From contig OZ250169.1 in the NCBI GenBank assembly GCA_965237955.1, positions 7,104,001 to 7,168,000 of the forward strand: a stretch of 64,000 nt of DNA, given 5' to 3'. Positions within the stretch are counted from its first letter, which is position 1. Every line of letters begins with the position of its first letter. This DNA is from Candidatus Marinacidobacterales bacterium. GTDB lineage: Bacteria; Acidobacteriota; Vicinamibacteria; Marinacidobacterales; SMYC01. The notes under the pieces are model-generated. The model made no database searches. It was not told where the DNA came from and saw only the letters and a list, made by a program, of their open reading frames with translations. Positions 991 to 18,660 of this stretch are shown piece after piece. Position numbers and translations under genes: made by a program.

Positions 991-1769
991 AAACGGCACG
1001 GCGCACTCGCAACGAAAACAACCGCACCGACCCACAAATTGAGGGGGACGCGTCGTTATCGGAACGTCGAAGTAATCTCCTGACAGATTCCTGTCGGAAG
1101 TATGCCAACGATGTGCCGTTGCGGAGCGACTCTGTCCGGACGCAGTTGAAGCGTGGGTGACGGCTCACGCACACGGTCCGCTGAACGCCGGTACTGGTCC
1201 ATCTTCTCTTGGCCGTAGTCCAGCTCCGCCATGTAGGCGTTGTGTGCAGGACATAAGAGTCGTATATTTTTGGCGTCGCGGCCGCCGCCGAGGCCATAGG
1301 CTTCGTCGTGATGGAACTGCAGTCCCTCGCGCTCCGGACAACGTCTGCCGTCCGCGCTGACAAACGTGCATTGGTCACAGTCGCGCTCGCACACGAAGCG
1401 CTTGACCGGTGCGGAGATACCACGCACGCCCGGCGACGTGTCGGCTTGTTCGAGGCTTTTTCTCGGCTTTTTCGTCTTGCCGAAGCGTTTCGCTTCGACC
1501 CGTTCCAGTTTCTCGCTCACCGCTGCTTCGACAATCGATGCGAGGTCGTTGCCGGGCATGAGCGCCGCGAGTCGTTTGAGCTTGTCGCGGAGCTCGGCGC
1601 TCGCGGTGAACTGCACTTTGTAGCGTTCCGGCGCCAACGCCTCGACCACCGCCGGCTTTTCAGGTGGGGTGGGATCGGCAGTGGGCGGAGAGCTCTGAGC
1701 CGCTCCGGACGTGAGAAAAAATCGCGTTTCCCAAGGGAGATGGGGATGGTTGGTCCACACTTCTGTCAA

Positions 1770-2528
1770 CTAGGGGGTTATGCGGCTTTTCGCGGCTTTC
1801 AGCTTGTCATACTCCTTCAACGCTGATTCTAGACGATCCTGTCTCTCTCGCCTGGCGCGTTGCTGCGCTGCCTGCATCTGCAGGCTCGATTCCTCCTCCG
1901 TCTGGGCGTTGAGAGTCTCTACCGCCTCACGCGCCTGCTCCAGGCACTCTTCGACCGTCGGCTTGCGGCGAAATCCACTCGACGAAGCGTTCGCGCGCAC
2001 CTTCGTCCCATCCAGCATGACTCGCTCGAGCGTGATCAATCCGTCCGAACTCAGAACTCCCAGAGCTTGCACAAACAACTCGTCCAGGATCTCCCTATGA
2101 ATCATCCGAAAGTCCGACAGCGTGTGCGCACTGATGCTCTGCATTCCGCTGAGCCATTGATACGCCGGATGATGTTCGCACAGCCGCTCAACCGCGCGGG
2201 CCGAACTCACGGCTTGGCTGTAGCTGTAGACCCACAGGCTCACCAGTAGCTGAGGATCAAACGCAGGCCGGCCTGCGCCACCCGCGACCGAGCGGACTTG
2301 ATCCGTGTACCCGCTGAGATCCAGCCGACCCACGAACTCCCAGATCGCACGCGCTGGGTGATCCTCTGGGATCAAACGCTCCACGTCGACCGTCCGCAGC
2401 AGCAGCTGCGCCCTATCGACCACCTTCAACCGAGCTTGTGTCACGCGCGCTCCCTCATCGCCGTCATCACCATCGCTGCGTTTTCGCGGACTCGGAAAGC
2501 CTGGAAGTGACGTTTGCTTATCACCCAC
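1770..2528 (-). pseudogene. IS1182-family transposase, C-terminally truncated
   Basis: DUF772-like N-terminus (LIPEDHPARAI, GRPAFDPQLL, SSARAVERLC) and first DDE aspartate (LDGTKVRANAS). Ends prematurely at the deletion junction. Confidence 0.9.
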
Positions 2529-2724
2529 GTTTACCCCGCTTCCTCCCACGCTTTGCCTTAGGCGTCCGACGCACAATCAGTGTGTTTCGATCCTCCACCA
2601 CCCACTCCAGCTCCTCGCCCGGCTCCATCTCTAGCGCCTGGGCTAAAGGTGACGGGCAAATCACATAGAACTGACGGGTGTCGTTGGCTCGCTTGATCAC
2701 CTGCAGCTTTGTCACGTATCCCAT
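2521..2724 (-). CDS. AbrB/MazE/SpoVT-like small DNA-binding protein carried by the IS
   Basis: MGYVTKLQVIKRANDTRQFYVICPSPLAQALEMEPGEELEWVVED fits a swapped-hairpin pattern. Lies inside the IRs; its stop overlaps the transposase GTG. Confidence 0.7.
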   Translation of the reverse strand: MGYVTKLQVIKRANDTRQFYVICPSPLAQALEMEPGEELEWVVEDRNTLIVRRTPKAKRGRKRGKRG

Positions 2725-3119
2725 GCTGGTCACTCTATAACATAGCTGCACCGCTAGTCAAGCTTAATTTTTTCTCACGTCCTCCGTCTGGACGGAGCTC
2801 GTTTTTCGGTTGCTGCGCTCGGTTGGCTCGCCGCTTGGGGAGCTTGCGGACGACGCCGGGAACATCCGGCTTCGGCGCAATCTCGGCCACCAGTTGGCTA
2901 AGCGCTTCTTTGGTCTTGTGAGTTGCTCGAGCCAAGAGCTCGTCGCAGTTGGCGTCCGTCAGATGAGGTGCCAGCACGGCAATGCCGCTCAAGTGAAACC
3001 GTCCATCCTCGAGCATCGTCAACAGCTCGGGATGTCGGCGTGACGCACGTGCAGCGGCGATCCGTAGATAGGCTTCTGTCTCTCCTAGCGTTTCCGCGCG
3101 GGCCACCGCGGTGTCATTT

Positions 3120-3170
3120 CTTGGTTGCGGCTTCGCTGCGCTGCGTTTCTCTGCGTGCTCTGCGGTGAGA
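3120..3170. repeat. Short repeat cluster, right member of the inverted pair with 950-990
   Basis: GCGTGCTCTGCGGTGAG at 3153-3169, preceded by TTGGTTGCGGCTTCGCTGCGCTGCG. Confidence 0.7.
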
Positions 3171-3342
3171 AAAACTACCCGAGACTCTGCCGCACCAGTT
3201 CCAGGCGACTGCAGCTGGACGGCCTTAGCTCCATGGTGCGCTGAACGGAGCTTACTCCCTCACCCTAACGACCTGTCAGTGCCTCATATCGCCGCGCGAG
3301 AGCGCGGTCGAGTTACTGGGGACTCCCCTGGAGACTGGTGAC

Positions 3343-3395
3343 CCGCCTTCGCCGTTGGCTTCGGCGGGCCAGCCGTAGCCTTGCGCGAAGACTGG
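3343..3395. repeat. REP/MITE-like hairpin element (CCGCCTTCGC...GCTTCGGCGGG...GTAGCCTT type)
   Basis: Same motif as 47321-47372; both copies are preceded by AC. Confidence 0.65.
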
Positions 3396-3412
3396 CTGGA
3401 GGCTGGCTGCCC

Positions 3413-6293
3413 TCATTCCTCGGTGCGGGGGCCTATCTCCACGTCGGTGATCGCTTGCATCACCGCGTCGTGGAACAGCGGACGCACTTCGTAGAGTTTT
3501 CGGTTCTCACGGGTGGGGTGCACCCGGTTGGTGAGGAGGATGGCGAAAAGCTCCCGCTTCGGGTCGATCCAGATCGAAGTCCCGGTGAACCCCGTGTGCC
3601 CGAAGGACTCACCCGAGAAATACTTCCCCGACGAGCTCCGCCCCGACGGGGTATCCCAGCCGAGCGCCCGGCTGGAGTCGGGGACGAGCTCGGCGCGGGT
3701 GGTGAAGAGCTCGATCGTAGCGCCGTTCACAAGCCGGTGCCCGTTGTACGCCCCGCCATTGAGAATCATCTGTACGAACGGCGCGAGGCTGCGTGCCGTG
3801 GAAAAAAGCCCGGCGTGCGGCGCAAGCCCTCCGAGACCGTATGCGTTCTCGTCGTGCACTTCCCCGTGAACGACCCGGCCGCGCCACTCGTCTCGTTCGG
3901 TCGGCGCGATCCGTGAACTGAGCGACGCGGGCGGCTGGAAGAGAGTCTCGTCCATACCGAGTGGCTCGAAGAGCTCTTCTTGCGCAAGAACGTCGAGAGG
4001 TTTCCCGGTGATGCGCTCGAGGATCTCCCCAAGAAGGAGAACCCCGAGATCGGAATAGGAAGTCTTGGACCTTGGCGTGTAGTCGAGCGGCATCTCGCAG
4101 ATCGTTTCGATGTACCCGGCCCGGGATTCTTCCGGCGTCTTTCCCTCGAACTTCTTGTAGAGCTCGGTCCACCACAAGAGCCCGCCGGAATGAGCGAGCA
4201 GATCCTTGACGAGAACGGTGTCTTTCTCGCCGCCGGTGAACTCCGGTATATACGCGGTCACAGGGCTTTCGAGATCCAACTGCTCCCGCTCGTAGAGGAT
4301 CATCGAAAGCGTGGTGGTGACGATCACCTTCGTGAGCGACGCCAGGTCGTACATCGTGTCGCGGCGGACGCGCTCGGCGTCTTCGTCGTAGCTCAAACGG
4401 CCGAGCGCCTCCTCGACCACGATTTCACCTCGTCTCGCCACGAGCACGACGGCACCCGGTGTTGCCCCGTCCTCGATCGCTTTGCGCACCCGATCGACCG
4501 CATCGTTCAGACCGCGCTTCGACATCCCCACTTCCTCGGGGTTTTCCTGTTGCTCGAGTTTCATAGCGTGCGCATCGGCGCGAAGGCCGTGCCCTTGAGG
4601 ATACCCCTCGGACAGACGAACCGGAAGCCTACCGTTGATTGGGACTTCCCCGAAGAGCGCCCGCGCGAGTGCGCGCTGCGACGCCGGCGCAAAATCATAG
4701 GTCGCGATGAGCGCGGCTGCCCCCGAAAGCTCGCTCAACGCATACGGTGTTCCAAGGCTCACGAAAATCACCCGCGTCCCGCGACGCGCGAGCTCGGCGA
4801 GAGCCTCGGTCAGGGCCCCGGCTCGCTCGCCGGGCCCGAGCAGCGATCGTTTCTGTGCATAGCTGGCGACGACGACGACTTCACCTTGTTCCGGGACGAT
4901 CCGCTCTGCCATGGTGTCGACGGTACGCGGCGTGAGACGAACACGGCGCACCCGGCGAGCTCGCTTTTGGAGCTCCTCAGCAAGGACGTCCGGATCCGAC
5001 GCGCGATCGCGGGCGAACAGGTAGTCGACGAGAAGCACGTCAGGTGGCTCCGCACTACTCAACGGAACGATCTCGTTGTCGTTGCGCACCAGGGTGAGCG
5101 TCTTGGAAGCAATGGCGTCGATACGTTCGCGAGCGCTCGGTGGGTTCACCGTGCGTTGCACGGCCATGAGGTCGACAGTGCGCTTGCGATGCAAGTCGAG
5201 CCGAGCCTTGGCTTGCAAAATACGCCGCACCGCATCACCGATGCGAGCCTCGGAGAGTTCGCCGCGTCGAACGCCTCGCAAAACAGACTCATACGTCACG
5301 AGTGGATCGGGGGGCACGAGCAGCATGTCGACACCGGCCTCGACCGCGGCCACCGCCACTTCTCCGTCCCATGCGCCGGCACGCGCGCCGCCCATGTCGA
5401 GCGCGTCGCTCACGATGAGGCCTTTGAAACCGAGCTCCCCGCGGAGAGCTCCCTGGAGGACTTCTTTCGAGATCGTTACCGGTTTGTCGGCGGGCCCACC
5501 CAACGCCGGTACCGCAATGTGCGCCGTCATGACTGCGGCGACACCGGCATCCACGGCTGCCGCGAACGGAACGAGCTCGACGTTTCGCAGTCGTTCGCGA
5601 TCGGACCGCACCACCGGCATGCTCAGATGCGAATCGACAGCGGTAGCTCCATGCCCGGGGAAGTGCTTTGCGGTCGTGAGAACACCGAGCTCTTGCGCCC
5701 GTTGGATGTACGCGGCGCCCAGGCGTGCCGCTTGTTCGGGATCTTCCCCGAACGAGCGCGTGTTGATCACCGTGTTCGCCGGGTTCGTGTTCAGATCCAA
5801 GACCGGGTTCAACAGCAAATGGATTCCGAGCGCACGCGCCTCACGGGCGGTGACCTCGGCTTGAAACTCGATGTCGTCCTCCGACGCGCCGGCGCCCATG
5901 GCCATCGCCACGGGAAAACGGCTCGCGCCCTCGACCCGCATGGCCGGGCCCCACTCGTAGTCGGACGCCATGAGGAGAGGGAGCCTCGCCGCCTCTTGAA
6001 GCCGGTTGGCAAGCGCCGCCGTCTCCTAAGGGTTCTCCTTTGAAGAATACGAAACCGCCGATCCGACCCGCGCGGGCTGCCGCAAGAAGCTCCTGAACTT
6101 CCGCATCCGATTCATTCGCAAAAAGGCTATTGCTTCGCGGATAGATCATCTGGCCCACTTTTTGTTCGAGGGTGAGCGTGGCGAGCGTTTCCTCGACCCA
6201 CAACGCGTTTCTGGCATCGGGTGCTTCGCCACGCCTCGAGCCCGCGCAGCCGACGCCAAACGCGAGGAGGATCGTCAGAGCAATTCGTTTCAT
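3413..6293 (-). CDS. GH3 beta-N-acetylglucosaminidase fused to a beta-lactamase/serine hydrolase domain (lipoprotein); frameshift near 6030
   Basis: KHFPGHGATAVDSH and SDALDMG (GH3); DLASLTK (SxxK), LLAHSGG, FGHTGFTG. The signal peptide and LTLEQKVGQM lie in ORF 5841..6293 in another frame, so this is a pseudogene or a sequencing error. Confidence 0.88.
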
Positions 6294-6326
6294 ATACGGC
6301 CAATCCTACTTACAATAGAGACGCAT

Positions 6327-7082
6327 ATGAAACAGCTCATCGTGACCGCCGACGACTTCGGCCTCACTCCCGGTGTCGTCACTGGCATCGTCGAGGCGCA
6401 CGAGCGGGGGATCGTCACCGCAACATCGCTCATGGTCAACGCGCCGGCGGCGGACGCGGCGTTCAAGTGGGCGCGCGAGCATGATTCTCTCGCCGTCGGG
6501 CTCCACTTCGTTCTCACCTTCGGCCGGCCGGTCGGCCCCGCGTGGCCGCTCGGCGATCTCCTCGATGGCGACGGCTCGTTCCGGAAGCTCGATGCGGGCG
6601 TCCATGACGAGGCCACCCCGGGACAGGTCGGCGCTGAGCTCAGGGCGCAGCTCGAGCGCTTCAAAGCCAATGTCGGCCGTCCGCCCACGCACATCGATGG
6701 CCACCATCACGTGCATGCGGTTCCGGGTATCCTGAGCGCGGTTCTCGAAGCGGCACGCCGCTATCAGATCCCGGTGCGCTCGCCGGACGACCGCACGCAC
6801 GCTCGCTTGCGAGCCATTGGAGTTCCGACATCAGATACGTTCGTCGACACTTTCTACGGCGAGGACAACGTCGACGAAGACGAGCTCGTCGCGATTATCA
6901 ACGAGCTTCCCGAGGGTACCACCGAGCTCATCTGCCATCCGGCCCACGAAGATACTCTCCTTCCCACACTCAGCAGCTACACCGACGCGCGATACCTCGA
7001 GTGTCGGACGCTCACATCGGACGATGCCCAGCAGGCATTGATCGAGTGCGACGTCGAGCTCGTACCGAGCCCCGTGTCCTAG
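6327..7082 (+). CDS. ChbG/HpnK (YdjC) family deacetylase
   Basis: [39 protein letters not shown] motifs. Confidence 0.92.
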
Positions 7083-7125
7083 TGCCCAGACGGCACGCTT
7101 GATAATGTCGAAGAAGAGGAGAACT

Positions 7126-8373
7126 ATGGGAAAAGCTCTCGAAGGTACTCGCATCCTGGATATGACCCACGTTCAGTCAGGACCAACGTGCACCCAGATC
7201 CTGGCGTGGTTCGGCGCTGACGTCATCAAGGTCGAGCGCCCCGGATCCGGTGACGCCACGCGCGGCCAGCTGCGCGACATACCGGACGTGGACAGCCTGT
7301 ATTTCACGATGCTGAACGCCAACAAGCGCAGCATCACCTTGAATCCCAAGACCGAAGCGGGCAACAAAATCTTCGCCAAATTGATCGAAGAGTGTGACGT
7401 GATGGTCGAGAACTTCGCTCCCGGCGCGATCGATCGTATGGGATTTCCATGGGAGAAAATTCAGGAGCTGAACCCACGCATGATCTACGCCTCGATAAAG
7501 GGGTTCGGCCCAGGTCCGCTCCAGGATTGCAAGGTTTACGAGAACGTCGCCCAATGCACCGGCGGAGCAGCGTCGACCACGGGCGAGATCGATCGTGTTC
7601 CCATGGTGACCGGCGCCCAGATTGGCGATTCCGGCACCGGCATCCACCTCGTGGCGGGCATCCTCGCCGCACTATTGCACCGTGAGAAAAGCGGCAAGGG
7701 TCAGCGCGTGGAATGTGCCATGCAAGATGCCGTGCTCAATCTTTGCCGGGTGAAACTCCGCGACCAGCAACGCCTCGCCCACGGCCCACTCACAGAGTAT
7801 CCGCAGTATCCCAACGGCGAGTTCGGCGATGCGGTGCCGCGCGCCGGTAACGCCTCCGGCGGCGGCCAGCCGGGCTGGATCGTCAAATGCAAAGGATGGG
7901 AGACCGATCCGGACGCCTATATTTACATCATCACCCAGGTGGCCGCGTTCGCCGCACTGGCCACGGCCATCGGTCATGAAGATTGGCTCGAGGATCCGGA
8001 ATGGAACACGCCCAGGGCACGCCTTCCCAAGCTGGACAAGATGTTTAATGAGATCGAGAAGTGGACCATGACCAAAGACAAGATGGAGGTCATGGACATC
8101 CTCAACCCGTTGAACGTTCCGTGCGGTCCAATTCTGTCCATGAAAGAGATCGCCGAACAAGAATCTCTTCGGAAGACCGGTACCGTGGTCGAGGTCGATC
8201 ACCCTGAACGCGGCAAGTATCTGACGGTCGGGAACCCGATCAAGCTCTCCGACTCGCCCGCCGACGTCCAGCGCGCGCCGCTTCTCGGCGAGCATACCGA
8301 AGAGATCCTCAAGACCGTCGTCGGTCTCGATAACAAAGAAATCGAGGCAGCACGCGAGCACGGAGCGATCTGA
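7126..8373 (+). CDS. frc: Formyl-CoA transferase
   Basis: [61 protein letters not shown]. Confidence 0.95.
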
Positions 8374-8377
8374 CACG

Positions 8378-9439
8378 GTGAAATACAACGTACTGATTCT
8401 CGGTGCCTCGTACGGTTCGTTGTTCGGCACGAAGTTGTTGCTCGCCGGGCACTCGGCAACGTTGATCTGTACGAAGCCCACCGCCGAGCTCATCAACCGC
8501 GACGGAACCGTGGTGCGCTTCCCGATCCGCGGCCGAGAGACGCCGGTCGAGATCTCATCGAAGGCGCTCGACGGTCATCTTTCCGCAAGCACACCAGACG
8601 ATGTCGAGCCCGGTGATTTCGACTTGGTCGTGCTCGGCATGCAGGAAGCTCAGTACGGCTCCGACGGCGTACGCGAGCTGATGGGACGCATCGCGACGGC
8701 ACGCGTGCCGTGTCTCGCGATCATGAACATGCCGCCGCTTCCCTACCTCGAGCGCATTCCCGGACTTTCGACGGAGCCGTTGAAGCAGTGTTTTGCCGAC
8801 CCCGGTGTTTGGGAAGGCTTCGATCCCGGGCTCGTCACGCTCGCGAGCCCCGACCCCCAAGCATTTCGCCCGCCCGACGAGCCGAAGAACGTTCTCCAAG
8901 TCGGTTTGCCGACGAACTTCAAAGCGGCGCGCTTCGAATCCGAACAGCACACGAACATGCTTCGCGAGCTGGAGTCCGACATCGACGCCATCCGGTTCGA
9001 TCCCGGCGACGGCGCCCTCGAGATCCCGGTCAAGCTCAAGGTGCACGATTCCGTCTTCGTGCCGCTCGCCAAGTGGCCGATGCTCATCACCGGCAACTAC
9101 CGCTGCATCCGGCGTGACGACATGATCCCGATCAAGGACGCCGTACACGCCGATATCGAGATGTCTCGGGACATCTACGCGTGGGCCGCGAAACTGTGTA
9201 CGAAGCTCGGAGCCGCTGATGCCGACCTGGTTCCCTTCGAGAAATACGCGAAAGCGGCAGAAGGGCTAGCGAAACCGTCGTCCGCGGCGCGTGCTCTTTT
9301 CGGCGGCGCCAAGGACATCGAGCGCGTCGACTGCCTGGTGCGGCAGATCGCAAAACAACAGGGCCTGCAGTCGGAGACGGTGGACGAGATCGTTACACTC
9401 GTGGACGAACGTCTAGAGAAAAACCGCGCGGGCGACTGA
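8378..9439 (+). CDS. Ketopantoate reductase-like Rossmann protein, coupled to frc
   Basis: N-terminal ILGASYGSL dinucleotide-binding motif; 4 bp downstream of frc. Confidence 0.65.
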   Translation: MKYNVLILGASYGSLFGTKLLLAGHSATLICTKPTAELINRDGTVVRFPIRGRETPVEISSKALDGHLSASTPDDVEPGDFDLVVLGMQEAQYGSDGVRELMGRIATARVPCLAIMNMPPLPYLERIPGLSTEPLKQCFADPGVWEGFDPGLVTLASPDPQAFRPPDEPKNVLQVGLPTNFKAARFESEQHTNMLRELESDIDAIRFDPGDGALEIPVKLKVHDSVFVPLAKWPMLITGNYRCIRRDDMIPIKDAVHADIEMSRDIYAWAAKLCTKLGAADADLVPFEKYAKAAEGLAKPSSAARALFGGAKDIERVDCLVRQIAKQQGLQSETVDEIVTLVDERLEKNRAGD

Positions 9440-9573
9440 ACGAGGAAAACTCGTCTCTTCATTCGCCTGTTTTTGGACGTTTGGAGACGGGGGACAAGTC
9501 CCGCCATCCGCTGATTGAAGCTCACCCTGGTCCCAGCTAGAATTGCCATCCAGAAGACCGACGAGTCACAAAA

Positions 9574-12114
9574 GTGATCGGCCAAACCCTCGCCCACTAC
9601 AAGATCCTGGAGAAGATTGGCTCAGGAGGCATGGGCGAGGTCTATCTGGCCGAGGACACCAAGCTCGACCGGAAGGTCGCACTGAAAGTTCTTCCGCCCG
9701 AGATGGCCGAGAGCGAAGAGCGCCGGGCCCGGTTCAAGCGTGAAGCCAAAGCCATCGCTGCACTCAATCATCCCAACATCGTCACCGTCCACTCGGTCGA
9801 AGAAGCTGACGGTGTCCACTTCATCACGATGGAGCTGGTCCAGGGGAAGACGCTTACGGAGCTGATCCCGAAGAAGGGCCTGCCGCTGAACCAGTACTTC
9901 GAATTAGCGATTCCCCTGGCCGATGCGGTGAGTGTTGCCCACCAGAAGGGCATCATCCACCTGGATCTGAAACCCGACAACTTGATGCAGGACGAGGAGC
10001 GGCGGCTCAAGATTCTCGATTTCGGCCTCGCGAAATGGAGGCAAGAGATCCGGGAGGCAGGTCTGAGCGAGCTACCCACGCAGGCGGCTACCGGAGAAGG
10101 ACGCATTGTGGGGACGGTGGCCTACATATCTCCCGAGCAGGCGGAAGGCAAGACGGTTGATCATCGCTCCGATATCTTCTCGATTGGAATCATCCTTTAT
10201 GAGATGGCGACGGGACAACGCCCTTTCACAGGAGAAACGACCGCTTCGGTTCTTTCGTCCATCATCAAAGAGACGCCTCTTTCGGTCACCGAAGTCAATC
10301 CCGCTCTACCAAAGTCCCTGTGGAGAATCACCAGACGGTGTTTGGCCAAAGATACGGAACGTCGGTATCAGTCTGCCAAAGAGATCCGAAATGAACTGGA
10401 GGAATTGAAGGGGGAGCTGGCCTCGGGAGAGCTCGTGGAGGGAGCGGTCGTTACGAAGCGCTCTCCGGTCGTGAAATGACCTACTTCCTTCGAGAGCTAC
10501 CGAGCGACCGTCTTCGCTTCACCAACCCGATTCAGATCACCTCGGCAGCGGGCGTGGAAGACTTTCCCACGTGGTCTCCCGATGGCGAGCGCCTGGCATT
10601 TCAGTCGGAGGAGAGCGGCAATCCTGACATCTGGGTGACCCAGCTCGGAGGCGGGGGAGCGGTGAACCGAACGGTGGCTCGCGTCGAGGAAGACCAAAGT
10701 CCGAGGTGGTCTCCCGACGGGAGCCAGATTGCGTTCCTCTCGGGGACGGACGTCTTCGTCATGCCAGCGGTGGGTGGCCGGCCTCGCAAGGTGTACGCTC
10801 CGGAAAGTGCGCGTTTCATAGGTTCAATTGACTGGTCGGCGGACGGCGCCGAGCTCGCGGTCGCTTTCAGTGCACCGGAAGGGCACTTCATCGACATCTT
10901 CTCCCTCCCGTCCCAGGAGACGCGGCGAATAGCCTCTCCGAGAAGATGCTGGGACCAGAGCTGGTCTCCTGATGGGCGCTACTTCGCTTGCGTCGCCGCG
11001 GGGAATGATCGTGCGCAAAGGACAAGCCTCTACCTTTTGCCTTCCACCGGAGGTGAGCCCATCGCCGTCACCGACAGGAGCTCGGGCGAGTGGAGCCCGA
11101 GCTGGTCCTCGGATGGACGCCGGCTCTTTTTCGTCTCGAACCGCGGCGGGAGTATGGATCTCTGGCAGCAACGCATCGGGGAGGAAGGGCCGGTGGGTGC
11201 TCCGGAGCCCTTGACGGTTGGTGTCGGCATGCGAAGGGCGGCCTTTTCTCCCGACGGGACGAAGCTCGCTTACTCCAGGGGCCGGATGGTGTCGAACGTG
11301 TGGCGCGCGCCCATTCTCCGCGAACGTCCAGCGACCCGGGCCGATGCCGAGCAGATCACCATAGGCCAGGCATACACCGGCCTCGGCGACATCTCTCCTG
11401 ATGGCCGGAGACTCCTGGTGGGCCGGAATAGGGGTATCTGGGTGCTCCCCGCCGAGGGGGGGCGAGATGGCCCTATTAACGACGGATGCCCGGGAGGGAA
11501 GATGGTCGCCGGACGGACGGGAGATTGTGTTCGGGTCACGCCGCGGGGGAAACCCGGATCTCTGGGTGATGCCCGCGGAGGGGGGTCCTGCCCGGCAGCT
11601 TACTTCAGACCCAGAAGGGGATCACGATCCGACGTGGTCTCCTGACGGAACGGAGATCGCCTTTCGCTCGCTCCGGAGCGGCAACTCCGACATTTGGGTG
11701 GTCTCGGCGGATGGGGGTGAACCGCGCCAGGTGACGGATCATCCCGGAAGCGATCAAAGCCCCGCCTGGTCGCCCGACGGCAAGTGGTTGGTGTTCCAGT
11801 CCCTCGGTCGCGGGGCCGGTCTCTGGCGCATTCCCGCTAGTGGAGGGGAAGCCGAGCCTGTCGCCGAGGGCAGGGCATACCGACCTAGCTGGTCGCCCGA
11901 CGGCAAGGAGATCTACTTCGTGCGACCGACCGACATCAGCACCAACATCTGGGCGGTGTCGTTAGAGGATGGGCGCGAGTACCCGGTGACCGATTTCTCG
12001 GGACGGCACGGGAGCCTCTACGAGTTCCCCCTCGCCACGGACGGAGACTACCTGTACTTTACCTGGGGAGAAGACCTCGGCGACATCTGGGTCATGGACG
12101 TCGTGGCAGAATGA
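9574..12114 (+). pseudogene. Ser/Thr protein kinase with TolB-like (PD40) beta-propeller, broken into three ORFs
   Basis: GSGGMGEV, VALK, HLDLKPDN (HRD changed to HLD), DFG. The transmembrane linker appears lost at ~10476. WSPDG repeats follow, with a frameshift in a G-run at ~11460. Confidence 0.85.
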
Positions 12115-13444
12115 TCTTTACTGTCGTACCCGCTCCCTCCACGCTTTCGAGCTGAATCTCGCCTCCCAAGCTGTGGATGATGCTCCGGCAGTTGAACAGC
12201 CCCCAGTTGCCTGTAGAGACCCTGCCCTCAGCCACCGTAAACGAAGGCTCGAATATCTGGTCCAGTCGCTCCGCCGGAATCCCGTGTCCGTCGTCCTCGA
12301 CCTCGACGACGACACCGTTTTTGTTGGCGCAGGAGCGAACGTGAATCGTGCCGTTGTCGCCGATCGCGTGCCTCGCGTTCAGCAGAAGATTCGTGAACAC
12401 GGCACTCAACTGTTGTGGACGGCACCGGAAAGTTGGAAGCGGCTCGAGCTCCAGGGTGATGTCCGCGGTCTTCTCGAGCTCGGCTCTTAGAGTCTCAACG
12501 GTATCCTCGAGTAGAACACGCACGTCGACCGCCGCTTCCTCCGCCCGATCAAGATGAGTGAACCGCTGCATCCGTCCGACAACCTCGCTCAGGCGTTCGC
12601 AGGAGCGTCTGGCCGTCGTCTCGATGTCGCCCAGCACTTTCATCAGCCGGTCTGAGGGTTGCTCTCCAGCTTGCGACTTCTCGAGGGCGACAGCCAGGGT
12701 GCTCAAGTTACTTTTGATAACCCCGATGGGCGAATTGAGCTCGTGACTCAAAGCTGCCGCGAGCCGTCCTTGCGCCGCCGCACTCTTGGCGAGAGTCACC
12801 TGCGCCTGAGCTCGTAGCACTTGCTGGCGGGCCTGAAAGGCGGAGGCTCGCTGGTGGTAGACCACAGCCGTCAATCCCACAAAGATGAGCGTCACCACAA
12901 CGAGGGAGGCCAAATTCAACGGCGAAACGTCCGGAACGAATAACTTCTCTGGATAAATCGCCATCGCGCCAACGTAGGTTACGAACATCGATGACCCGAG
13001 AGCTAGAGTGTGAAGCGGCCGTAAAGGCATCGCGCCGATACTCACCAGCATCACCAGATTGATGTTCGGCGGAACGGCGTGCTCGACTCCAGGATAAGAG
13101 GCTGTCACCGCCGTTACGATGAAGATCAACGCCACGCCATAGCCGATGACACATCCGGCTAGCCGCGCGTGTTTACGTAGCCTGGGCAGGACCCAGAACG
13201 GGACCCCCACCAGGCCCGTCCCCATCAGAGCGAGATCGGGCCAAACCCAGATGTGAGACAAATATCCCAGCTTGCTCAATATCGTAGTGACCGTCAGCAT
13301 GAACCCAACCCCTACCACGGTGATGAAGACGATTGCTCTCAGGCCGACGACGGCGACCCTCGTCAACTCTTCGCGCAAGGCGGGATCCCGCTGCTCTTCT
13401 TCAGGCAGCAGATATCGTTTCCAATCGCTCCACCGGATACCCAT
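12092..13444 (-). CDS. Membrane sensor histidine kinase
   Basis: Several TM helices, LSHELNSPI H-box, NLLLNA N-box, DDGHGI G1, IFEPSFT, GWGL-like G2 (GNWGLF). Confidence 0.9.
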   Translation of the reverse strand: MGIRWSDWKRYLLPEEEQRDPALREELTRVAVVGLRAIVFITVVGVGFMLTVTTILSKLGYLSHIWVWPDLALMGTGLVGVPFWVLPRLRKHARLAGCVIGYGVALIFIVTAVTASYPGVEHAVPPNINLVMLVSIGAMPLRPLHTLALGSSMFVTYVGAMAIYPEKLFVPDVSPLNLASLVVVTLIFVGLTAVVYHQRASAFQARQQVLRAQAQVTLAKSAAAQGRLAAALSHELNSPIGVIKSNLSTLAVALEKSQAGEQPSDRLMKVLGDIETTARRSCERLSEVVGRMQRFTHLDRAEEAAVDVRVLLEDTVETLRAELEKTADITLELEPLPTFRCRPQQLSAVFTNLLLNARHAIGDNGTIHVRSCANKNGVVVEVEDDGHGIPAERLDQIFEPSFTVAEGRVSTGNWGLFNCRSIIHSLGGEIQLESVEGAGTTVKIILPRRP

Positions 13445-13899
13445 CGTATGCCTCCCCGGGAGTTGACCCCACGGCCAGGACATTCTAGTCCATGTATCAG
13501 AAATTGTTTTGCAATACGCATCGCCACATGGTCGAGCACAGCGCGGCGGAGCCGCAACGAAACTCATGACTTTGGAGTGGGAGCAGTCCGTCTGGCCATC
13601 GCCCGGTCAGTGAACCAGGAAGCTCGGCCGAGTCAAGGTTAGCCTCGTTTCGCTCGGCGGCTTCGCCGACCCTCGACATATTGACTCGACCTGCGCAACG
13701 GGTAGCGGTTCTGTCTCACTCAACTCCGGACGTGAGAAAAAATCGCGTTTCCCAAGGGAGATGGGGATGGTTGGTCCACACTTCTGTCAACTAGGGGGTC
13801 GGGTCCGCGCGGTACGGATTCACCCGATATCGTATCGGCGTTTCGTTGGTGCTCTATGACTAGCGCTTTAACAAGTCGGGCTGCGTGTGCTCAACGCGC

Positions 13900-15466
13900 T
13901 CACGTCGGCACGAGTGTCGATACCATCTTCGGCCTCCAGCGGAGGCGAATCCACTGCAAGATATCGTAGGTGAGGGCGACCCACAGAGATTCAGTGCGCA
14001 CTTTGGCGACTCCGCGCACGCTAAACTGCCGCAGGCCGAACTTGGTTTTGATCCAGAGATTCGGAAACTCGGCCACCTGCGAGCGTGTCTTATAGATGGC
14101 CTTGGCTTCGTCGGTCTGCATCTTCTTCCGGAACGCGGCTATGTCGGGCAAGAGTTCGCGCCGCTCGATCGAGCGGCCGTGCTGCGTACGAGGACAACAC
14201 TGCTCTTTGGCCGGACACGTCTGGCAGTCTTGCTTAGACGCCTTATATCGATAGCGCATCGTGCCATGGCTTTCCTGCTTGGCGTCGTAGCGTAAGTGCT
14301 TGCCCTGCGGGCACACATACGTGTTGGTCTGCGTATCGAAGACAAACTTCGACGCCTCGTATTCCGCTTTCACGCCGTGGTGCTTATACGACTTGCGCCG
14401 ATTGGCCTCTGCTGCCTTGTTCTCGTGGTCGGGGCCGACGAGATCGATGCCGCGCTTCGCCATCTCCGCGATGTTGTTGCTACTTAATGTAGCCTCCATC
14501 TACGACCATCTGCTCGGGCGCACGCTGCATGCTCTGCTCAATCCGTTCTATGGCCGGCGTCAGCTGCTGATAATCGCTACCGGCCTGCGTGGCATCGATG
14601 TCGACAATCAGGCCGTGTGCGGCATCCGTTGAGACTTGGACGTTGTAGTTAGGTGCGGAGCCGCCCTCGGCTTGCTTCATCACCCGCGCGTCGGGATCGG
14701 TCGTGCTCACGCAGTCTATGCGGCTTTTCGCGGCTTTCAGCTTGTCATACTCCTTCAACGCTGATTCTAGACGATCCTGTCTCTCTCGCCTGGCGCGTTG
14801 CTGCGCTGCCTGCATCTGCCGGCTCGATTCCTCCTCCGTCTGGGCGTTGAGAGTCTCTACCGCCTCACGCGCCTGCTCCAGGCACTCTTCGACCGTCGGC
14901 TTGCGGCGAAATCCACTCGACGAAGCGTTCGCGCGCACCTTCGTCCCATCCAGCATGACTCGCTCGAGCGTGATCAATCCGTCCGAACTCAGAACTCCCA
15001 GAGCTTGCACAAACAACTCGTCCAGGATCTCCCTATGAATCATCCGAAAGTCCGACAGCGTGTGCGCACTGATGCTCTGCATTCCGCTGAGCCATTGATA
15101 CGCCGGATGATGTTCGCACAGCCGCTCAACCGCGCGGGCCGAACTCACGGCTTGGCTGTAGCTGTAGACCCACAGGCTCACCAGTAGCTGAGGATCAAAC
15201 GCAGGCCGGCCTGCGCCACCCGCGACCGAGCGGACTTGATCCGTGTACCCGCTGAGATCCAGCCGACCCACGAACTCCCAGATCGCACGCGCTGGGTGAT
15301 CCTCTGGGATCAAACGCTCCACGTCGACCGTCCGCAGCAGCAGCTGCGCCCTATCGACCACCTTCAACCGAGCTTGTGTCACGCGCGCTCCCTCATCGCC
15401 GTCATCACCATCGCTGCGTTTTCGCGGACTCGGAAAGCCTGGAAGTGACGTTTGCTTATCACCCAC
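13900..15466 (-). CDS. IS1182-family DDE transposase, +1 frameshift near 14490
   Basis: LDGTKV, STTDPDARVMK, YNVQ, VVDGGY, then YVCPQGK, CQTCPAKEQC, YKTRSQVAEFPNLWIK, GLRQFSVRG in ORF 13900..14499. Confidence 0.9.
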
Positions 15467-15772
15467 GTTTACCCCGCTTCCTCCCACGCTTTGCCTTAGG
15501 CGTCCGACGCACAATCAGTGTGTTTCGATCCTCCACCACCCACTCCAGCTCCTCGCCCGGCTCCATCTCTAGCGCCTGGGCTAAAGGTGACGGGCAAATC
15601 ACATAGAACTGACGGGTGTCGTTGGTGTTCCGCTTCAGCGGAAATGAGACTTTCTGCAAGTGACGGGTTCTCTCCCCTGCCTGGGTGAACTGCCATGGTA
15701 TCGCCACCGGGAGGATAGGGCACTGCTGGGAAGCAACCCGAGCGCCCGGTGGCCGGAATACGGTTGGCATTA

Positions 15773-16819
15773 TTACGCACTGTGTTCATGCTCCCGGGCT
15801 CCGGTATGAGCCAAACCGGATCCGCTCAAAGCGGAAAATCCCGGGGGTTCGGGGGCAGAGCCCCCGTTCGCTATGTGACAACTGGATTCTCCGAGCCGTT
15901 TGAGGTTTTCTTCGCGGCGATGCTTGCGTGCGTTCTCGAGTTTGTCGAGACGTACCTGCTTGCGCTCTTCGTGACGGAGGAGAAACCGGTCTTCGGGCGT
16001 GAGGTATTCGATTCCTGCGTGGAGCCTCTTTGCGTTGTAAATCTCTATCCATTCTCCGATGATGTCTTTCGCGTGAAGCTGATTGCGAAGCTCCTTGTCG
16101 GAGAGGCCCTCCTCGCGCAACGTGCGATGAAATCGCTCGATTGCACCGTTGGACTGCGGATGATGAATGCGAATACGAATCTGCTTCAATGAGAAGTGCT
16201 TGATGAGTTTGCGGAAGTCCTTGCTGGTAAATTGGCTGCCGTTGTCGTTGACAATCTGGGGCCGTTCTCCAGGGTAGCGCTCCAGTGCTGCATGGACCAC
16301 ATCCGTCACTTCGGCGGCGGTCATGCGCGACAGCAGTTCCCAGTACACGATGTAGCGCGAGAAGCCGTCCAGCACTCCGATGAAGAAATACCACCGTCCC
16401 GCGATCCACAGGTACATCAAGTCCGTATGCCAGCGTTCGTGGGGGCGTTTCGGAAGTTCGGGCTTGCGGCCTACGGACGGTGTGGCATTCCACCTTGCGA
16501 GCAAATCGTTCCGGTCCAGAATGCGGTACACGCTGCTCGGGCTCAGGCAAACGACATCCTCGTCCACCATCATCCAGCACAGCCGCCGGTAGCCGTCCCG
16601 TGGGTGTGCTAAAGCATAGACCGTCACCGCCTCCTCCTCTTCGGCAAGCACCTGGTCCAAGTCTGGTGCCTTGGGCTTGATGTCCTCCAGCGCTCCCTCC
16701 TTGCGCCTCTTTTGCCAGCGGTAGTACAGCGAGCGAGAGAGCCCGAGCTTCGAGACAACCCATTCCAGCTTCACCCGGCTTCTCTCCATCGTCTGCTCGA
16801 TACAATCCAAAATCCTCAA
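15773..16819 (-). CDS. IS3 transposase OrfB (rve integrase core)
   Basis: WHTDLMY, LDGFSRYIV, NDNGSQF, PQSNGAIERFHRTLREE, YNAKRLHAGIEY. Confidence 0.93.
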   Translation of the reverse strand: MRILDCIEQTMERSRVKLEWVVSKLGLSRSLYYRWQKRRKEGALEDIKPKAPDLDQVLAEEEEAVTVYALAHPRDGYRRLCWMMVDEDVVCLSPSSVYRILDRNDLLARWNATPSVGRKPELPKRPHERWHTDLMYLWIAGRWYFFIGVLDGFSRYIVYWELLSRMTAAEVTDVVHAALERYPGERPQIVNDNGSQFTSKDFRKLIKHFSLKQIRIRIHHPQSNGAIERFHRTLREEGLSDKELRNQLHAKDIIGEWIEIYNAKRLHAGIEYLTPEDRFLLRHEERKQVRLDKLENARKHRREENLKRLGESSCHIANGGSAPEPPGFSALSGSGLAHTGAREHEHSA

Positions 16820-16851
16820 CTTCTCGTGCGGCTCGAAACGACACCGGTCGA

Positions 16852-17145
16852 CTAGCTTCCAAGCGTTTTTTTTAGGTCCAGATTCTCCATGGTGATCTCT
16901 ACCACCACCGATTTCATCCTCTCAAGCTCTTGACGCAGCTTCTCCTCGCGGCGAGACGCCTTCTCCTTCTTGCCATTCTGAAATGATTCCAGTGTCGCCT
17001 CCTCCGATTGTTTCAGCCACTGATAGTACTGCCCTGTATTCAATGCGTGGCGCCGACACACCTCGGACACCGTCGCACCACTCTCCTGGCACTCCTTGAG
17101 TATCTGCAGCTTCTCCTTCGCTGACCAACGTTTCCTGCCGTCCAT
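16852..17145 (-). CDS. IS3 transposase OrfA (HTH)
   Basis: RKRWSAKEKLQIL..VSEVCRRH..YYQW; A8 slippery run at its 3' end (16866-16873). Confidence 0.92.
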   Translation of the reverse strand: MDGRKRWSAKEKLQILKECQESGATVSEVCRRHALNTGQYYQWLKQSEEATLESFQNGKKEKASRREEKLRQELERMKSVVVEITMENLDLKKTLGS

Positions 17146-17336
17146 CTCTGCCTTCTCCCTTCGTTGAGTATAAGACAGAGGCGAAAACCGTCACTTACTA
17201 CGACCCCCAAAAGTCTCATTTTGGCTGAACCAATACAGTTGGCTCGCTTGATCACCTGCAGCTTTGTCACGTATCCCATGCTGGTCACTCTATAACATAG
17301 CTGTACAGCTAGTTAAGCTTAATTTTTTATCACGTC

Positions 17337-17355
17337 CTCTGCCCGGGCAGAGTTG
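17337..17355. repeat. HNH-associated palindrome, upstream copy (its left tip lies at 13721-13726, split off by IS1182)
   Basis: CTCTGCCCGGGCAGAGTTG is identical to 18637-18655. Confidence 0.9.
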
Positions 17356-17574
17356 AGCGTGAGCTCGCGAAGAAAAAGATCACTTTGTGCTTGACAGCTT
17401 TTTGAAGGCGTGTTGGAAAAAAGTGTGCGCGCGATCTCTAGTGCGTCTGTGCGCGGCGTAAAGCAACGATAGTCGCCTTGTTTTCGCTGTCGAGACTTCG
17501 CAAGACCGTTGACGTCTTTGCGTTTGACAGGCGCGAACTGAGTGTGACGAAAAACTCCATGCTATAAGAAACAC

Positions 17575-18660
17575 ATGAACAACATAGACGAATTGAGATC
17601 GCTTTCCGACGACGAGTTGCTTCATCGTGTGTCGGATTTGTTAGCGCAGTCGCGACGTGTCGAGTGGGTTCTTGTCGCACACATCGCGGAAGTCGATGCA
17701 CGTCGACTCTATGCTCGCGAAGCTTCGCCGTCGATGATTCACCACTGCATGGATGTGTTGCATTTGTCGGAAGGGGAAGCTTATCGGCGCATCGCCGCAG
17801 CTCGGCTGTCACGCAAGTATCCGGTGATCCTTACGATGCTCAAGGACGGACGCCTTCACTTGTGCGGTATCGGAGTGCTGTCCAAGCACCTGAGTGACGC
17901 CAACTACGAAGACGTCTTGGCCAAAGCCACGCACAAGAGCAAACGTGAGCTCGAAAAGCTCGTGGCCGAGTTGGCTCCGAAACCGGATGTTGCGCCGACG
18001 ATTCGTAAGCGGCCGCAACGCAAAGCGAAGGCGGCGCCTCCCGAATCGTCGAACGAGCTCTGCCCGGACAGAGGTGAGCAAAATGCTCCCCCAGTCGAGC
18101 CCGCCCCTCCACAAGCCCCTGAAAAACCGGCAACGGTCGAGCCTCTGGCGAAAGCGCGCTACAAAGTCGAGTTCACGGCGAGCGAGGAGCTCCGCGACAA
18201 GCTCAAACGGCTCGAGGCGCTCATGCCGGGAAGCGACCTCGCGTCCATCATAGACGCGGCCGTGTCCGAAAAACTCGAGCGCGTCGAGGCCAAACGCTTC
18301 GGTAAGACCAACAAGCCGAGAAAAAGCCTTGAAGCAGCTGATACCTCGTCGGGTGTGCGCGGCATCTCGGCCCCAGTCCGGCGTTTCGTCTGCGAACGTG
18401 ACGGGGACCAATGCACGTTCGAAAGCCCTGACGGCAAACGATGCCCCGAGCGTGACAGGCTGGAGTTCCATCACGACGAACCCTGCGGACTAGGCGGAGA
18501 CCGAAGCGCGAAGAACGTCCGGCTCCTCTGTAAATTACACAACGCCTATATGGCTGAGCTCGACTACGGCAAAGAAAAGATGGACCAGTACCGGCGCTCC
18601 GCCGACCGCGTCTCGGAACCTCAACCCACACTCGAACTCTGCCCGGGCAGAGTTGCGTAA
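17575..18660 (+). CDS. DUF222-like HNH endonuclease (copy 2, intact, 361 aa)
   Basis: LSDDELL..LVAHIAEVDARRLY..LSEGEAYRRIAAAR N-domain; C-terminal VCERDGDQCTF..C..LEFHH..GG..NVRLLCKLHN. TGCTATAAG extended -10 ends 6 nt before the ATG. Confidence 0.88.
   Translation: MNNIDELRSLSDDELLHRVSDLLAQSRRVEWVLVAHIAEVDARRLYAREASPSMIHHCMDVLHLSEGEAYRRIAAARLSRKYPVILTMLKDGRLHLCGIGVLSKHLSDANYEDVLAKATHKSKRELEKLVAELAPKPDVAPTIRKRPQRKAKAAPPESSNELCPDRGEQNAPPVEPAPPQAPEKPATVEPLAKARYKVEFTASEELRDKLKRLEALMPGSDLASIIDAAVSEKLERVEAKRFGKTNKPRKSLEAADTSSGVRGISAPVRRFVCERDGDQCTFESPDGKRCPERDRLEFHHDEPCGLGGDRSAKNVRLLCKLHNAYMAELDYGKEKMDQYRRSADRVSEPQPTLELCPGRVA
18635..18654. repeat. Perfect 20-bp palindrome at the 3' end of the HNH ORF
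   Basis: AACTCTGCCCGGGCAGAGTT is its own reverse complement and encodes ELCPGRV. Confidence 0.92.

Follow-up and report, generated by a model that had tools for sequence, protein, structure and literature searches.

An IS1182-family element occupying palindromes of multicopy HNH genes at a fixed register and with a 3-bp repeat in a Marinacidobacterales bacterium

The window, that is, the whole stretch of 64,000 nucleotides that was analysed from the genome of a Candidatus Marinacidobacterales bacterium, contains two copies of an IS1182 insertion sequence (IS), each lying in a palindrome of a different HNH gene. Copy 1 is inserted within the first of these genes, H1 (strand is given where a feature has one):

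1056..1703, minus strand: C-terminal part of H1, from the end of the linker to the stop codon (open reading frame [ORF] 1056-1769)
1129..1146: 3' palindrome of H1 (P3), ACTCTGTCCGGACGCAGT, unoccupied
1702..1706: left remnant of the H1 linker palindrome (P2); 1704-1706 is TCC, the left copy of the 3-bp repeat
1707..2782, minus strand: IS1182 copy 1, 1076 bp, running from its right end (1707) to its left end (2782), with 15-bp terminal inverted repeats
1779..2576, minus strand: copy 1 transposase gene, truncated to its DUF772 part
2521..2724, minus strand: small passenger ORF, AbrB/MazE-like, which overlaps the start of the transposase gene
2783..2798: right part of the H1 linker palindrome (P2); 2783-2785 is TCC, the right copy of the 3-bp repeat
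2786..3088, minus strand: N-terminal part of H1, family residues 64-169

H1 lacks the leader and about 63 N-terminal codons, while its C-terminal part matches residues 169-361 of the second gene, H2, at 78%. Copy 1 carries a 916-bp internal deletion, located 72 bp inside its right end. The passenger ORF scored 21.2 bits against PF04014, under the 24.7 cut-off, and an atlas lead points to an AbrB/MazE/SpoVT cluster, with the family on 12% of members. An earlier, sequence-only reading of this DNA had held that removal of copy 1 restores the H1 frame, and this is correct when the IS is removed together with 3 bp, but not when it is removed with 2 bp. Copy 2 is inserted 238 bp upstream of H2:

13723..13727: left remnant of the H2 upstream palindrome (P1); 13725-13727 is TCC, a misfit to the palindrome
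13728..17337, minus strand: IS1182 copy 2, 3610 bp including a nested element, with right end at 13728 and left end at 17337
13900..15514, minus strand: copy 2 transposase gene, frameshifted near 14480-14499
15626..17237, minus strand: nested IS3-family element with two ORFs, TG...CA ends and a 5-bp repeat, GTTGG
17338..17353: right part of the H2 upstream palindrome (P1); 17338-17340 is TCT, the native triplet
17391..17574, plus strand: conserved HNH-element leader of ~185 bp, from TTGACAG to a TATAAG box before the ATG
17575..18660, plus strand: HNH gene H2, intact, 361 aa
18057..18074: H2 linker palindrome (P2), unoccupied
18636..18653: H2 3' palindrome (P3), unoccupied, same sequence as P1
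18654..18900, plus strand: H2 3' tail

The TCC at 13725-13727 is likely a foreign triplet. With the right-hand TCT, 13 consecutive arm pairs span the junction at copy 2, and it is by using this triplet, rather than the left TCC, that the flanks rebuild a perfect palindrome, as had been proposed for them. The nested element (NF033516, 180.2 bits, above the threshold of 160) splits the small ORF of copy 2 and has five further copies in the genome. The leader, which could be aligned in 7 HNH elements and is listed for 10, had no Rfam match in a search of window positions 1-20000. A copy of the H2 3' tail, 94% identical, borders the IS1182 copy at genome position 4100193, where there is no HNH gene.

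The transposase was assigned to IS1182 by a family-model search (NF033551, 404.6 bits against a cut-off of 270, residues 54-523), and a domain search matched DUF772 and DDE_Tnp_1_6. The element consists of a single DDE transposase gene and a small extra ORF between 15-bp terminal inverted repeats, GGACGTGAGAAAAAA, present in the 12 two-ended copies, and an intact 537-aa allele of the transposase is encoded at genome position 1564582-1566573 (L015). Putative catalytic residues D189, D339 and E482 were placed by motif alone, and there is a YREK-like motif (Y474-R477-E482-K489). Genome-wide there are 14 insertion events, 12 of them represented by two-ended copies. Mean divergence among the copies is only 0.35%, which indicates recent spread without implying present activity, and their mosaic ends point to frequent recombination between them.

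The repeat had originally been described as a TC (or TCC/TCT) duplication. It is 3 bp long, not 2, clean in 8/12 two-ended copies, with one further copy having 4 bp and three having unequal triplets, among them copy 2 (TCC left, TCT right). Over five genomes, 3-bp repeats flank 28 of 44 two-ended copies, and the repeat is clean at 8/8 two-ended metagenome sites. Read along the transposase gene, the centre of the triplet is G in all 12 right flanks of the Marinacidobacterales genome and C in 23/23 right and 30/30 left flanks of the relative G008; opposite orientations of the triplet are fixed in two 89%-identical lineages, and G008 has entered the same palindrome in the reverse direction (L037). 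The 15 unequal pairs comprise 6-7 colinear cases, three two-locus hybrids (4100193, L043, L056) and five assigned to neither class. Unequal repeats at single loci occur at window copy 2, 2448758, L028 (where the left triplet is foreign, judged from a homologous gene), L060, L061, L062 and, weakly, L047. From point mutation alone, the probability of at least 6 in 44 is about 3e-4, and 8/10 one-base differences possibly involve just the base touching the IS end. IS haplotype is a weak predictor of the triplet, with p 0.013 in the best of 7 tests and p 0.067 for clean copies.

The target itself is well defined in this genome. In eight of the 12 two-ended copies, the insertion point follows base 5 of the 18-bp dyad RCTCYGTCYRGACRGAGY, and the left end of the IS points toward the core. 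The degenerate dyad has 19 exact matches in 8.1 Mb, several within reading frames, whereas 20 permuted symmetric consensuses gave 0-1 matches each, although the consensus was derived in part from occupied sites; 8/19 are occupied, and all eight are cut after base 5. The fixed register and common orientation first noticed in the window are upheld, both copies lying after (A/G)CTC plus one base in the left arms of their 18-bp dyads. Neither of the two cues that had been offered for the register is supported. CTC-N10-GAG occurs 3557 times, no more often than with spacers of 7, 8, 11, 13 or 14 (3560-3835), and only 5/129 perfect 18-bp palindromes and 8/3952 six-pair hairpins are occupied.

Most G008 sites are non-palindromic and yet have a common consensus, and their logo is symmetric about the triplet (G4, T5, G9 and C11 outward from both ends). 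A flank profile was trained on outward positions 4-12 of 43 G008 ends, with the triplet unscored and five HNH- or palindrome-located copies omitted. When applied within +/-12 bp of the sites here, it ranked the observed register first at 8/12 and second to its own 11-bp mirror at 3/12, while being one base off at the site with the 4-bp repeat. The symmetry of primary importance has its centre at the 3-bp overlap rather than at the axis of the palindrome. Ten of the 12 sites fall within the top 1% of genome positions, but their ranks run from 7 to 273,552, with one miss, so an extra source of specificity is indicated here, such as the second arm, cooperative binding, a cruciform or a tethering protein. 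Arms having the second arm are occupied in 8/22 cases versus 0/84 half-sites without it, a partly circular comparison in that the patterns were taken from the same sites. The triplet has an influence too: CTC-arm dyads are occupied in 8/11 cases versus 0/8 for CTG-arm dyads (Fisher p 0.003) with equal flank-profile scores, the CTG-type dyads all being non-independent members of one related subfamily. The CTG-type HNH elements have intact genes and zero insertions. In G008, target choice is far looser than in the Marinacidobacterales genome, and many copies are in genes.

Six of the 14 events lie within HNH-family elements, which make up ~0.3% of the genome (P about 2e-12), and two more adjoin HNH-element tails. 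One HNH element is occupied at all three of its palindromes, and 8/14 distinct metagenome sites of relatives abut an HNH gene. However, just 2/30 copies in G008 and 0/5 in G025 lie beside such a gene, and HNH genes are therefore not required by the element. The proposal that the IS exploits palindromes belonging to a multicopy HNH element is supported, without the association being obligatory.

Twenty loci of the HNH family were found in the genome (17 at >50% identity), and five relatives have 13-45 protein matches each, with 38 in G008 and 45 in G025. H2 is predicted to comprise a ParB/KorB-like helical N-terminal domain, a disordered linker and a zinc-binding HNH domain. In a fold search, the N-terminal domain matched the DNA-binding domains of ParB, Spo0J and KorB with Z of 8.6, 8.2 and 7.4 (rmsd 7.7, 3.6 and 3.7 over 133, 108 and 109 residues), Raf1 being level with ParB at Z 8.4 and values near 8 being common for helical domains. 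Among 86 homologues, C280, H300, C319 and H322 of the HNH domain are invariant and C290, N314 and N323 occur in at least 90%; Pfam HNH was matched in just 10, and the fold match to the GVE2 HNH gave Z 7.7 (rmsd 3.0, 75 residues). Each gene has palindromes at three places, one lying upstream of it, one within the linker and one at the stop codon, and they are more similar within than between elements (permutation p 0.004). Given this and the predicted fold, the palindromes are likely binding sites of the protein's own N-terminal domain. Judged by its copy number, the HNH element may be mobile or "selfish"; an empty orthologue was sought once, and a second filled site turned up.

We propose that this IS1182 element inserts by reading sequence, with a 3-bp stagger, and that the 18-bp palindromes of HNH elements are its favourite targets, a reading to which we give roughly two chances in three. 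The transposase would likely recognize a degenerate sequence, roughly GNCYRGAC-NNN-GTYYRGNC, with its symmetry centred on the three overlap bases; the palindromes would be favoured since each contains two such sites 11 bp apart. With the register set by the transposase footprint, either arm would be usable. In each lineage the triplet has a single orientation, and its two copies are sometimes unequal. The transposase could conceivably recognize an extruded hairpin or cruciform instead and cut a set number of bases away from its loop, as proposed for IS1272/TnSha1, since structure reading is known in the IS1182 family (outlined in PMC5678879 and PMC4923244), distant homologues (47-51% identity) occupy hairpin loops with 3-8 bp repeats, and full dyads here are occupied far above half-sites. 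This is improbable in view of the few perfect palindromes occupied (0/8 for CTG-type dyads), the little or no pairing at occupied off-consensus sites (5544662, 6483753, 2448758 and 1566573) and the consensus shared by mostly non-palindromic sites in G008.

Tethering, in which the ParB-like domain of the HNH protein (or the AbrB-like passenger) recruits or licenses the transpososome at the palindromes, is assigned a similarly small probability. The IS would then parasitise the protein of the HNH element in addition to its DNA. Tethering would account for specificity beyond the flank-profile prediction, a ParB/KorB-like domain is predicted, and an unrelated IS481-like element also gathers at HNH elements; yet G008 and G025 have abundant HNH matches and few or no adjacent copies, CTG-type elements with intact genes are empty, and the simpler effect of a bound protein would be to block its own site. 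Least probable of all is that insertion is much looser than it appears and that copies persist mainly in dispensable selfish elements. Several IS types are indeed gathered there, and loose sites inside genes hold many of the G008 copies, but survivorship leaves unexplained the single-base register, the empty CTG-type elements and the insertions into the same dyad in unrelated genes (the dyad at 6676518 is occupied inside such a gene, and the orthologous site was entered via the other arm in L165).

Returning to sequence-read insertion, the colinear unequal repeats suggest carry-over of donor flank, with gene conversion as the rival. The excised element may keep short 5' donor-flank overhangs, as piggyBac does, and ligation at the new site would sometimes retain at least one base of them; this is our preferred reading, at slightly less than even odds. 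The triplets might instead reflect adjacent deletions, or recombination and gene conversion between copies that are near-identical, with orientation set by the transposase or by unequal ends of the element and no donor DNA carried along, an account that we rate only a little lower. Three hybrids are demonstrated, IS ends are mosaic, unequal pairs occur in multicopy genomes versus 0/8 metagenome sites, the G008 right end differs at base 5, and the repeat can be absent after IS movements with deletions (described in bioRxiv 10.1101/2024.06.02.596822). Against this account, sister-copy homology at L028 and L060 stops no more than 2 bp from the changed base, CGA|IS|AGA recurs in 3/3 G012 copies at unrelated sites, and the distant homologues L138 and L141 also have unequal repeats at perfect hairpins. 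In addition, L178 and L183 share 17-bp end tips with opposite orientations (one site each), and the C-centre state appears at two places on a quick tree (G008; L175 and L178).

A bolder extension, which we consider rather unlikely, is target memory: the element would excise with three flanking bases at each end, and these would have to pair with the target overlap before insertion could finish, so that a new site inherits triplet and orientation; the palindromes would be operators of the ParB-like/HNH selfish gene, of which some copies in relatives end in the same IS terminus and may themselves be moved by the transposase. If true, flanking DNA rather than the transposase would carry a heritable targeting state, and this would explain both the opposite entry by sister lineages and the skipping of one palindrome subfamily.

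IS1182 palindrome targeting is already known, and the register and 3-bp repeat found here depart from the modes described for it. As outlined in PMC5678879 and PMC4923244, IS1272/TnSha1 deletes the stem-loop with no duplication and little sequence consensus, while in other IS1182 modes it is the loop or the entire hairpin that is duplicated. The likeness lies in the transposase family, the inverted-repeat targets and repeated independent insertions in one target. In contrast, here one arm contains the 3-bp repeat, at 5.5 bp from the axis, a clear consensus and fixed orientation are present, and the palindrome is retained, being largely rebuilt beside one end. Insertion at a constant position within dispersed palindromes of one family is also characteristic of REP-targeting ISPsy8, ISPa11, ISPpu9/10 and ISRm19/22, which are not given as IS1182 in the abstract of PMC1525189. 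Unlike high-copy extragenic REPs, the present target is rare, with 19 exact copies, some of them in reading frames, and is linked to a nuclease element.

The overhangs of piggyBac can alter bases at non-canonical sites. Like the present element, piggyBac has a DDE transposase; it follows an IS4-type pathway, and its excised ends bear flank-derived 5' overhangs that, as summarized in PMC7351741, do not steer target choice. Its target is the symmetric TTAA whatever the flank, whereas the overlap here is 3 bp, asymmetric, lineage-specific and oriented; in the present system the proposed mechanistic steps are read from genomes, and the YREK-like motif would fit a hairpin/overhang pathway. Carry-over of old-site letters, if it occurs, would be an unusual trait in a bacterial element of the IS1182 kind, whose members show several target habits, none with worked-out chemistry in the literature searched. 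Should flank bases steer both target and orientation, this would go beyond piggyBac, and the landing of a DDE transposase could be set by its donor. The subfamily provides a defined target and, in its strict and loose lineages, a natural panel for comparison. It also yields two sharp predictions, namely that sequence is read in preference to structure and that donor bases turn up at new junctions.

The multicopy HNH genes resemble the DUF222-HNH (REP13E12-type) genes (PMC3592412) in being multicopy. Their N-terminus is at most weakly DUF222-like: DUF222 in H2 scored 16.3 bits, under the 24.4 cut-off, and at E<=0.01 it is matched by 25/86 homologues. The literature searched contained no mention of three subfamily-matched palindromes per element or of such palindromes serving as IS targets. 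The nuclease family is widespread and unexplained; the IS is tied to its palindromes and marks them as probable functional sites. As a side observation, several IS types have built up in the HNH elements, which are dispensable; the IS481-like element accumulates immediately upstream of the TTGACAG.

The mobile element found twice in the window is a member of the IS1182 family, its intact transposase (537 residues, from an allele located outside the window in the same genome) scoring 404.6 bits against the IS1182 model, with a cut-off of 270. The same orientation given to both copies in the sequence-only reading is borne out by their transposase genes:

IS1182 copies of the window
1707-2782, transposase gene on the minus strand: copy 1, inside the truncated HNH gene H1
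13728-17337, transposase gene on the minus strand: copy 2, upstream of the intact HNH gene H2

The termini are 15-bp inverted repeats, GGACGTGAGAAAAAA, and an AbrB/MazE-like ORF of 67 residues (Pfam score under the cut-off) overlaps the transposase start. Copy 1 has 916 bp deleted, while copy 2 has a frameshifted transposase and an IS3-family element nested within it; other elements are nested in three further copies, at genome positions 4431667, 6483753 and 6676518 (3572, 4033 and 3444 bp, respectively). In the whole genome, 12 copies retain both ends, one retains a single end and one is a remnant; close relatives of the transposase occur in records of Candidatus Marinacidobacterales and other Acidobacteriota. 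A sequence search for a relative of the transposase with a solved structure returned none, and Rfam gave no match in window positions 1-20000.

Insertion generates a 3-bp repeat. Eight of the 12 two-ended copies have clean 3-bp repeats (TCC six times, ACC and TCT, in the window's reading direction), and the other four comprise one with a 4-bp repeat and three with unequal triplets, including copy 2 (TCC left, TCT right; the left end is that upstream of the transposase gene). The duplication had earlier been taken as TC, with excision of copy 1 restoring the HNH frame. The frame is indeed regained when the IS and three bases are removed, but not when the IS and two bases are, and a 2-base duplication is thereby rejected in favor of the 3-bp repeat.

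The insertions also occupy a fixed register. Eight of the 12 two-ended copies share one position in an 18-bp dyad, RCTCYGTCYRGACRGAGY: the element follows its fifth base, the left end facing the core; of the rest, two are in poorly pairing degenerate dyads, one in a weak dyad and one (that with the 4-bp repeat) in none. Searched against the IS-free genome, a slightly widened dyad consensus matches exactly at 19 places versus 0-1 per permuted symmetric control (n = 20), and allowing two mismatches yields 130 matches, inside the control range of 71-419. With only 19 exact copies and a two-mismatch count no higher than that of the controls, a high-copy REP family is not a fitting description of these palindromes. 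Neither of the proposed means of recognition, a CTC-N10-GAG dyad or structure itself, was supported. CTC-N10-GAG is no more frequent in the genome than the same arms at other spacings, which rules it out as the determinant, and only 5/129 perfect 18-bp palindromes and 8/3952 six-pair hairpins are occupied; therefore, shape alone does not select the site.

A different basis for the register emerged from related genomes. A DNA match to the IS was present in 8 of the 41 genomes searched, with near full-length copies in five besides this genome. In one such relative, G008, the element is 91% identical in DNA and 89% in protein, and its 30 mapped copies lie mostly in unrelated, non-palindromic sites. 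Outward from either end, G008 flanks favor +4 G, +5 T, +9 G and +11 C, with symmetry about the triplet. A profile of positions 4-12, with the triplet unscored, was trained on 43 G008 ends, with five copies that lie within HNH genes or complete palindromes set aside. Among the 12 sites of this genome, it ranked the observed register top within 12 bp at eight and second at three, where it was beaten only by the mirror arm 11 bp off, and it fell one base off at the 4-bp-repeat site. The palindrome is thus best read as two triplet-centered sites one helical turn apart, so that no hairpin is needed to explain why the register is fixed.

The profile explains only part of site choice, as the genome-wide ranks of the sites range from 7 to 273,552. 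Arms with a matching second arm were hit in 8/22 cases versus 0/84 for half-sites without one, a partly circular comparison. The triplet also counts: 8/11 CTC-arm dyads are occupied versus 0/8 CTG-arm dyads (p 0.003; the eight CTG dyads are related), and the latter have flank scores as good as the former. A perfect dyad in an unrelated gene (genome 6673059-6676518) is occupied in one arm here, while the orthologous site of a metagenome contig (L165) is occupied in the opposite arm. At L063-L067, L177, L187 and L215, in relative G025 and several metagenome contigs, the target is a longer palindrome in which GTTAC/GTAAC repeats surround the same GTCCGGAC core; this palindrome is also the tail of one HNH element. 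More distant IS1182 homologues with ends GAAGCTGTGAA (L125, L128, L131-L161) occupy hairpin loops or other repeats and have duplications of 3-8 bp, and the target mode of the studied subfamily thus differs from that of this nearest outgroup.

Palindrome targeting is already known in the IS1182 family from two reports (PMC5678879, PMC4923244), whose supplements hold further target sites. As described there, IS1272/TnSha1 differ from the present element in deleting hairpins without duplication and without a sequence consensus, and the alternatives reported for IS1182 are duplication of the loop or of the whole hairpin. Insertion at fixed points in REPs is known for other elements, the REP-targeting insertion sequences (PMC1525189). 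Searches of the open literature turned up no account of IS1182 inserting into a palindrome arm with a 3-bp repeat or into palindromes of HNH genes, of HNH-element palindromes serving as targets, or of oriented or unequal repeats in the family. The targeting pattern is real and a new variation on the IS1182 habit, and it provides a testable lead on IS1182 chemistry.

The HNH nuclease family that so often hosts these insertions has 20 loci in this genome and at least 3831 homologues. Every element carries a conserved leader plus as many as three palindromes, of which one lies ~250 bp upstream, one in the linker and one at the stop codon; palindromes of one element resemble each other more than those of different elements (p 0.004). 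Conservation of the HNH residues holds across 86 homologues. The best alignments of the predicted N-terminal domain are to the DNA-binding domains of ParB, Spo0J and KorB, with Raf1 scoring equally well, and because of this resemblance the palindromes are plausibly binding sites of the HNH protein itself. Foldseek with an alignment-based model of H2 returned nothing at E<=0.001; the single-sequence fold was unusable (pLDDT 43).

Insertion events are enriched in these elements, which make up 0.3% of the genome yet contain 6/14 events (P of about 2e-12, or 4e-8 when four distinct elements are counted among the 12 two-ended copies). Two of the other eight adjoin HNH-element tails without a gene, and six are unlinked. 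Of 33 metagenome pattern matches, 17 were excluded before counting, having no transposase and no end-like continuation; the remaining 16 are this IS at 14 distinct sites (three of the 16 being one site), all with dyad-type flanks and eight of the 14 with an HNH match within 60 bp. The suggestion that the IS exploits HNH-element palindromes therefore stands for this genome and the metagenomes, but not as an obligatory link, since only 2/30 copies in G008 and 0/5 in G025 adjoin an HNH gene; the G025 flanks are similar to one HNH element's tail. One HNH element (L206, genome 5301300-5307800) has the IS at all three palindromes: full copies in opposite orientations in the upstream and linker palindromes, and a decayed 180-bp remnant in the 3' palindrome.

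The triplets are oriented. Read along the transposase gene, the central base is G in 12/12 right flanks here and C in 23/23 right and 30/30 left flanks of G008, while G025 has CAA or CGA and G012 has CGA or AGA. From a symmetric complex, equal entry into CCA and TGG would be expected. At one G008 locus (L037), the IS lies in the same palindrome but with its opposite end facing the core. On a quick tree, the C state appears in G008 as well as in L175 and L178, each represented by one site, amid G-state neighbors. Replication direction was rejected as the cause, two copies 700 bp apart in opposite directions having the same triplet. Over five genomes the two-ended copies number 44, of which 28 are flanked by clean 3-bp repeats, one by a 4-bp repeat and 15 by unequal repeats. 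Three unequal pairs are hybrids of two loci, five were assigned to neither class, and single loci account for six or seven, namely copy 2, genome 2448758, L028, L060, L061, L062 and, weakly, L047. At copy 2, arm pairs run 13 consecutive across the junction; at L028 and L060, one homologous gene continues through both flanks with exact offset, and the homologue marks the left triplet of L028 as foreign. Two distant homologues (L138, L141) also have unequal repeats, at perfect hairpins.

Most likely, the sequences on either side of the 3-bp overlap are recognized by a transposase dimer, two sites 11 bp apart make a palindrome a better target, and the nuclease is not required for insertion. Excision would leave flank-derived 5' overhangs, sometimes sealed into the new site; this is the least certain step and draws on analogy with piggyBac, where such overhangs arise via an IS4-type hairpin pathway (PMC7351741). 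Partial nick translation would most often leave the base adjoining the IS end, the position that 8/10 one-base differences fit. Such carry-over of donor-flank bases is the reading we prefer, at a probability of roughly 0.45. Counted against it are mosaic IS ends, eight metagenome sites with clean repeats, a weak haplotype signal (one of seven tests of IS haplotype against triplet at p 0.013, non-significant once corrected) and the published statement that piggyBac targeting is not steered by the overhang (PMC7351741). Gene conversion or recombination as the source of the unequal repeats is a serious possibility, if short of an even chance. Homology to this genome revealed no reciprocal partners for the unequal flanks of G008, G012 and G025. 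Point mutation is an unlikely source (P about 3e-4). A stronger form of carry-over, in which each new site inherits both triplet and orientation, is doubtful. Junctions of right end, spacer and left end, as in a circle or tandem, numbered zero in 224 loci and zero in 401 sampled genomes, among which G000 is the sole known carrier, and a single viral match was not such a junction; the result is weak, since assemblies would rarely hold them.

Several relatives have HNH genes or 3' remnants whose tail ends in GGACGTGAGAAAAAA, 100-250 bp past the last palindrome and with no transposase nearby (L021, L036, L040, L045, L048 and L050 in G008; L058 and L059 in G012; L078 and L080-L083 in G017, G005, G015 and G018). 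Most adjoin a target-like half-site, and at L083 and L048 the far side of the terminus is the HNH element's own upstream palindrome. A fuzzy search found no second terminus, and this genome has no such units; they may be one-ended or non-autonomous elements mobilized by this transposase. A 141-bp IS piece lies within an HNH fragment at L021:1407-1547, and the far flank of L050 matches a multicopy element found here with 100% protein identity, which suggests recent exchange between genera.

Further features
L205:1740-3120 and genome 1522089, 1989011, 4886514, 5205986, 5576921, 5700238, 6231159 and 6560031: IS481-like element, 220.5 bits (cut-off 224)
Window 3413-6293, 9574-12114 and 18941-19664: genes of the host for a GH3/beta-lactamase-fold fusion and for two Ser/Thr kinases

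One end of the IS481-like element, reading GGTCCGGACC, is present in eight cases. In seven of them it falls between TTGACAG and the upstream palindrome, at a distance of 186-320 bp upstream from an HNH-family gene; in the eighth it is 1.9 kb away. A second IS family is concentrated on the same nuclease elements, and common descent may account for some of the cases. The H2 leader (window 17391-17568) has a -35-like TTGACA at its start and a -10-like TATAAG ~166 bp on, both kept in all aligned elements; a simple promoter scan of the leader gave no plus-strand promoter. Short CTCTGCG-type repeats (window 950-990 and 3145-3165) lie on either side of truncated H1, replacing its 5' end, and insertions into similar repeats occur at L124 and L126. 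Among the host genes, a frameshift separates an N-terminal piece of the GH3/beta-lactamase-fold fusion and both Ser/Thr kinase genes are in pieces; many HNH elements of the genome lie directly upstream of Ser/Thr kinase genes.
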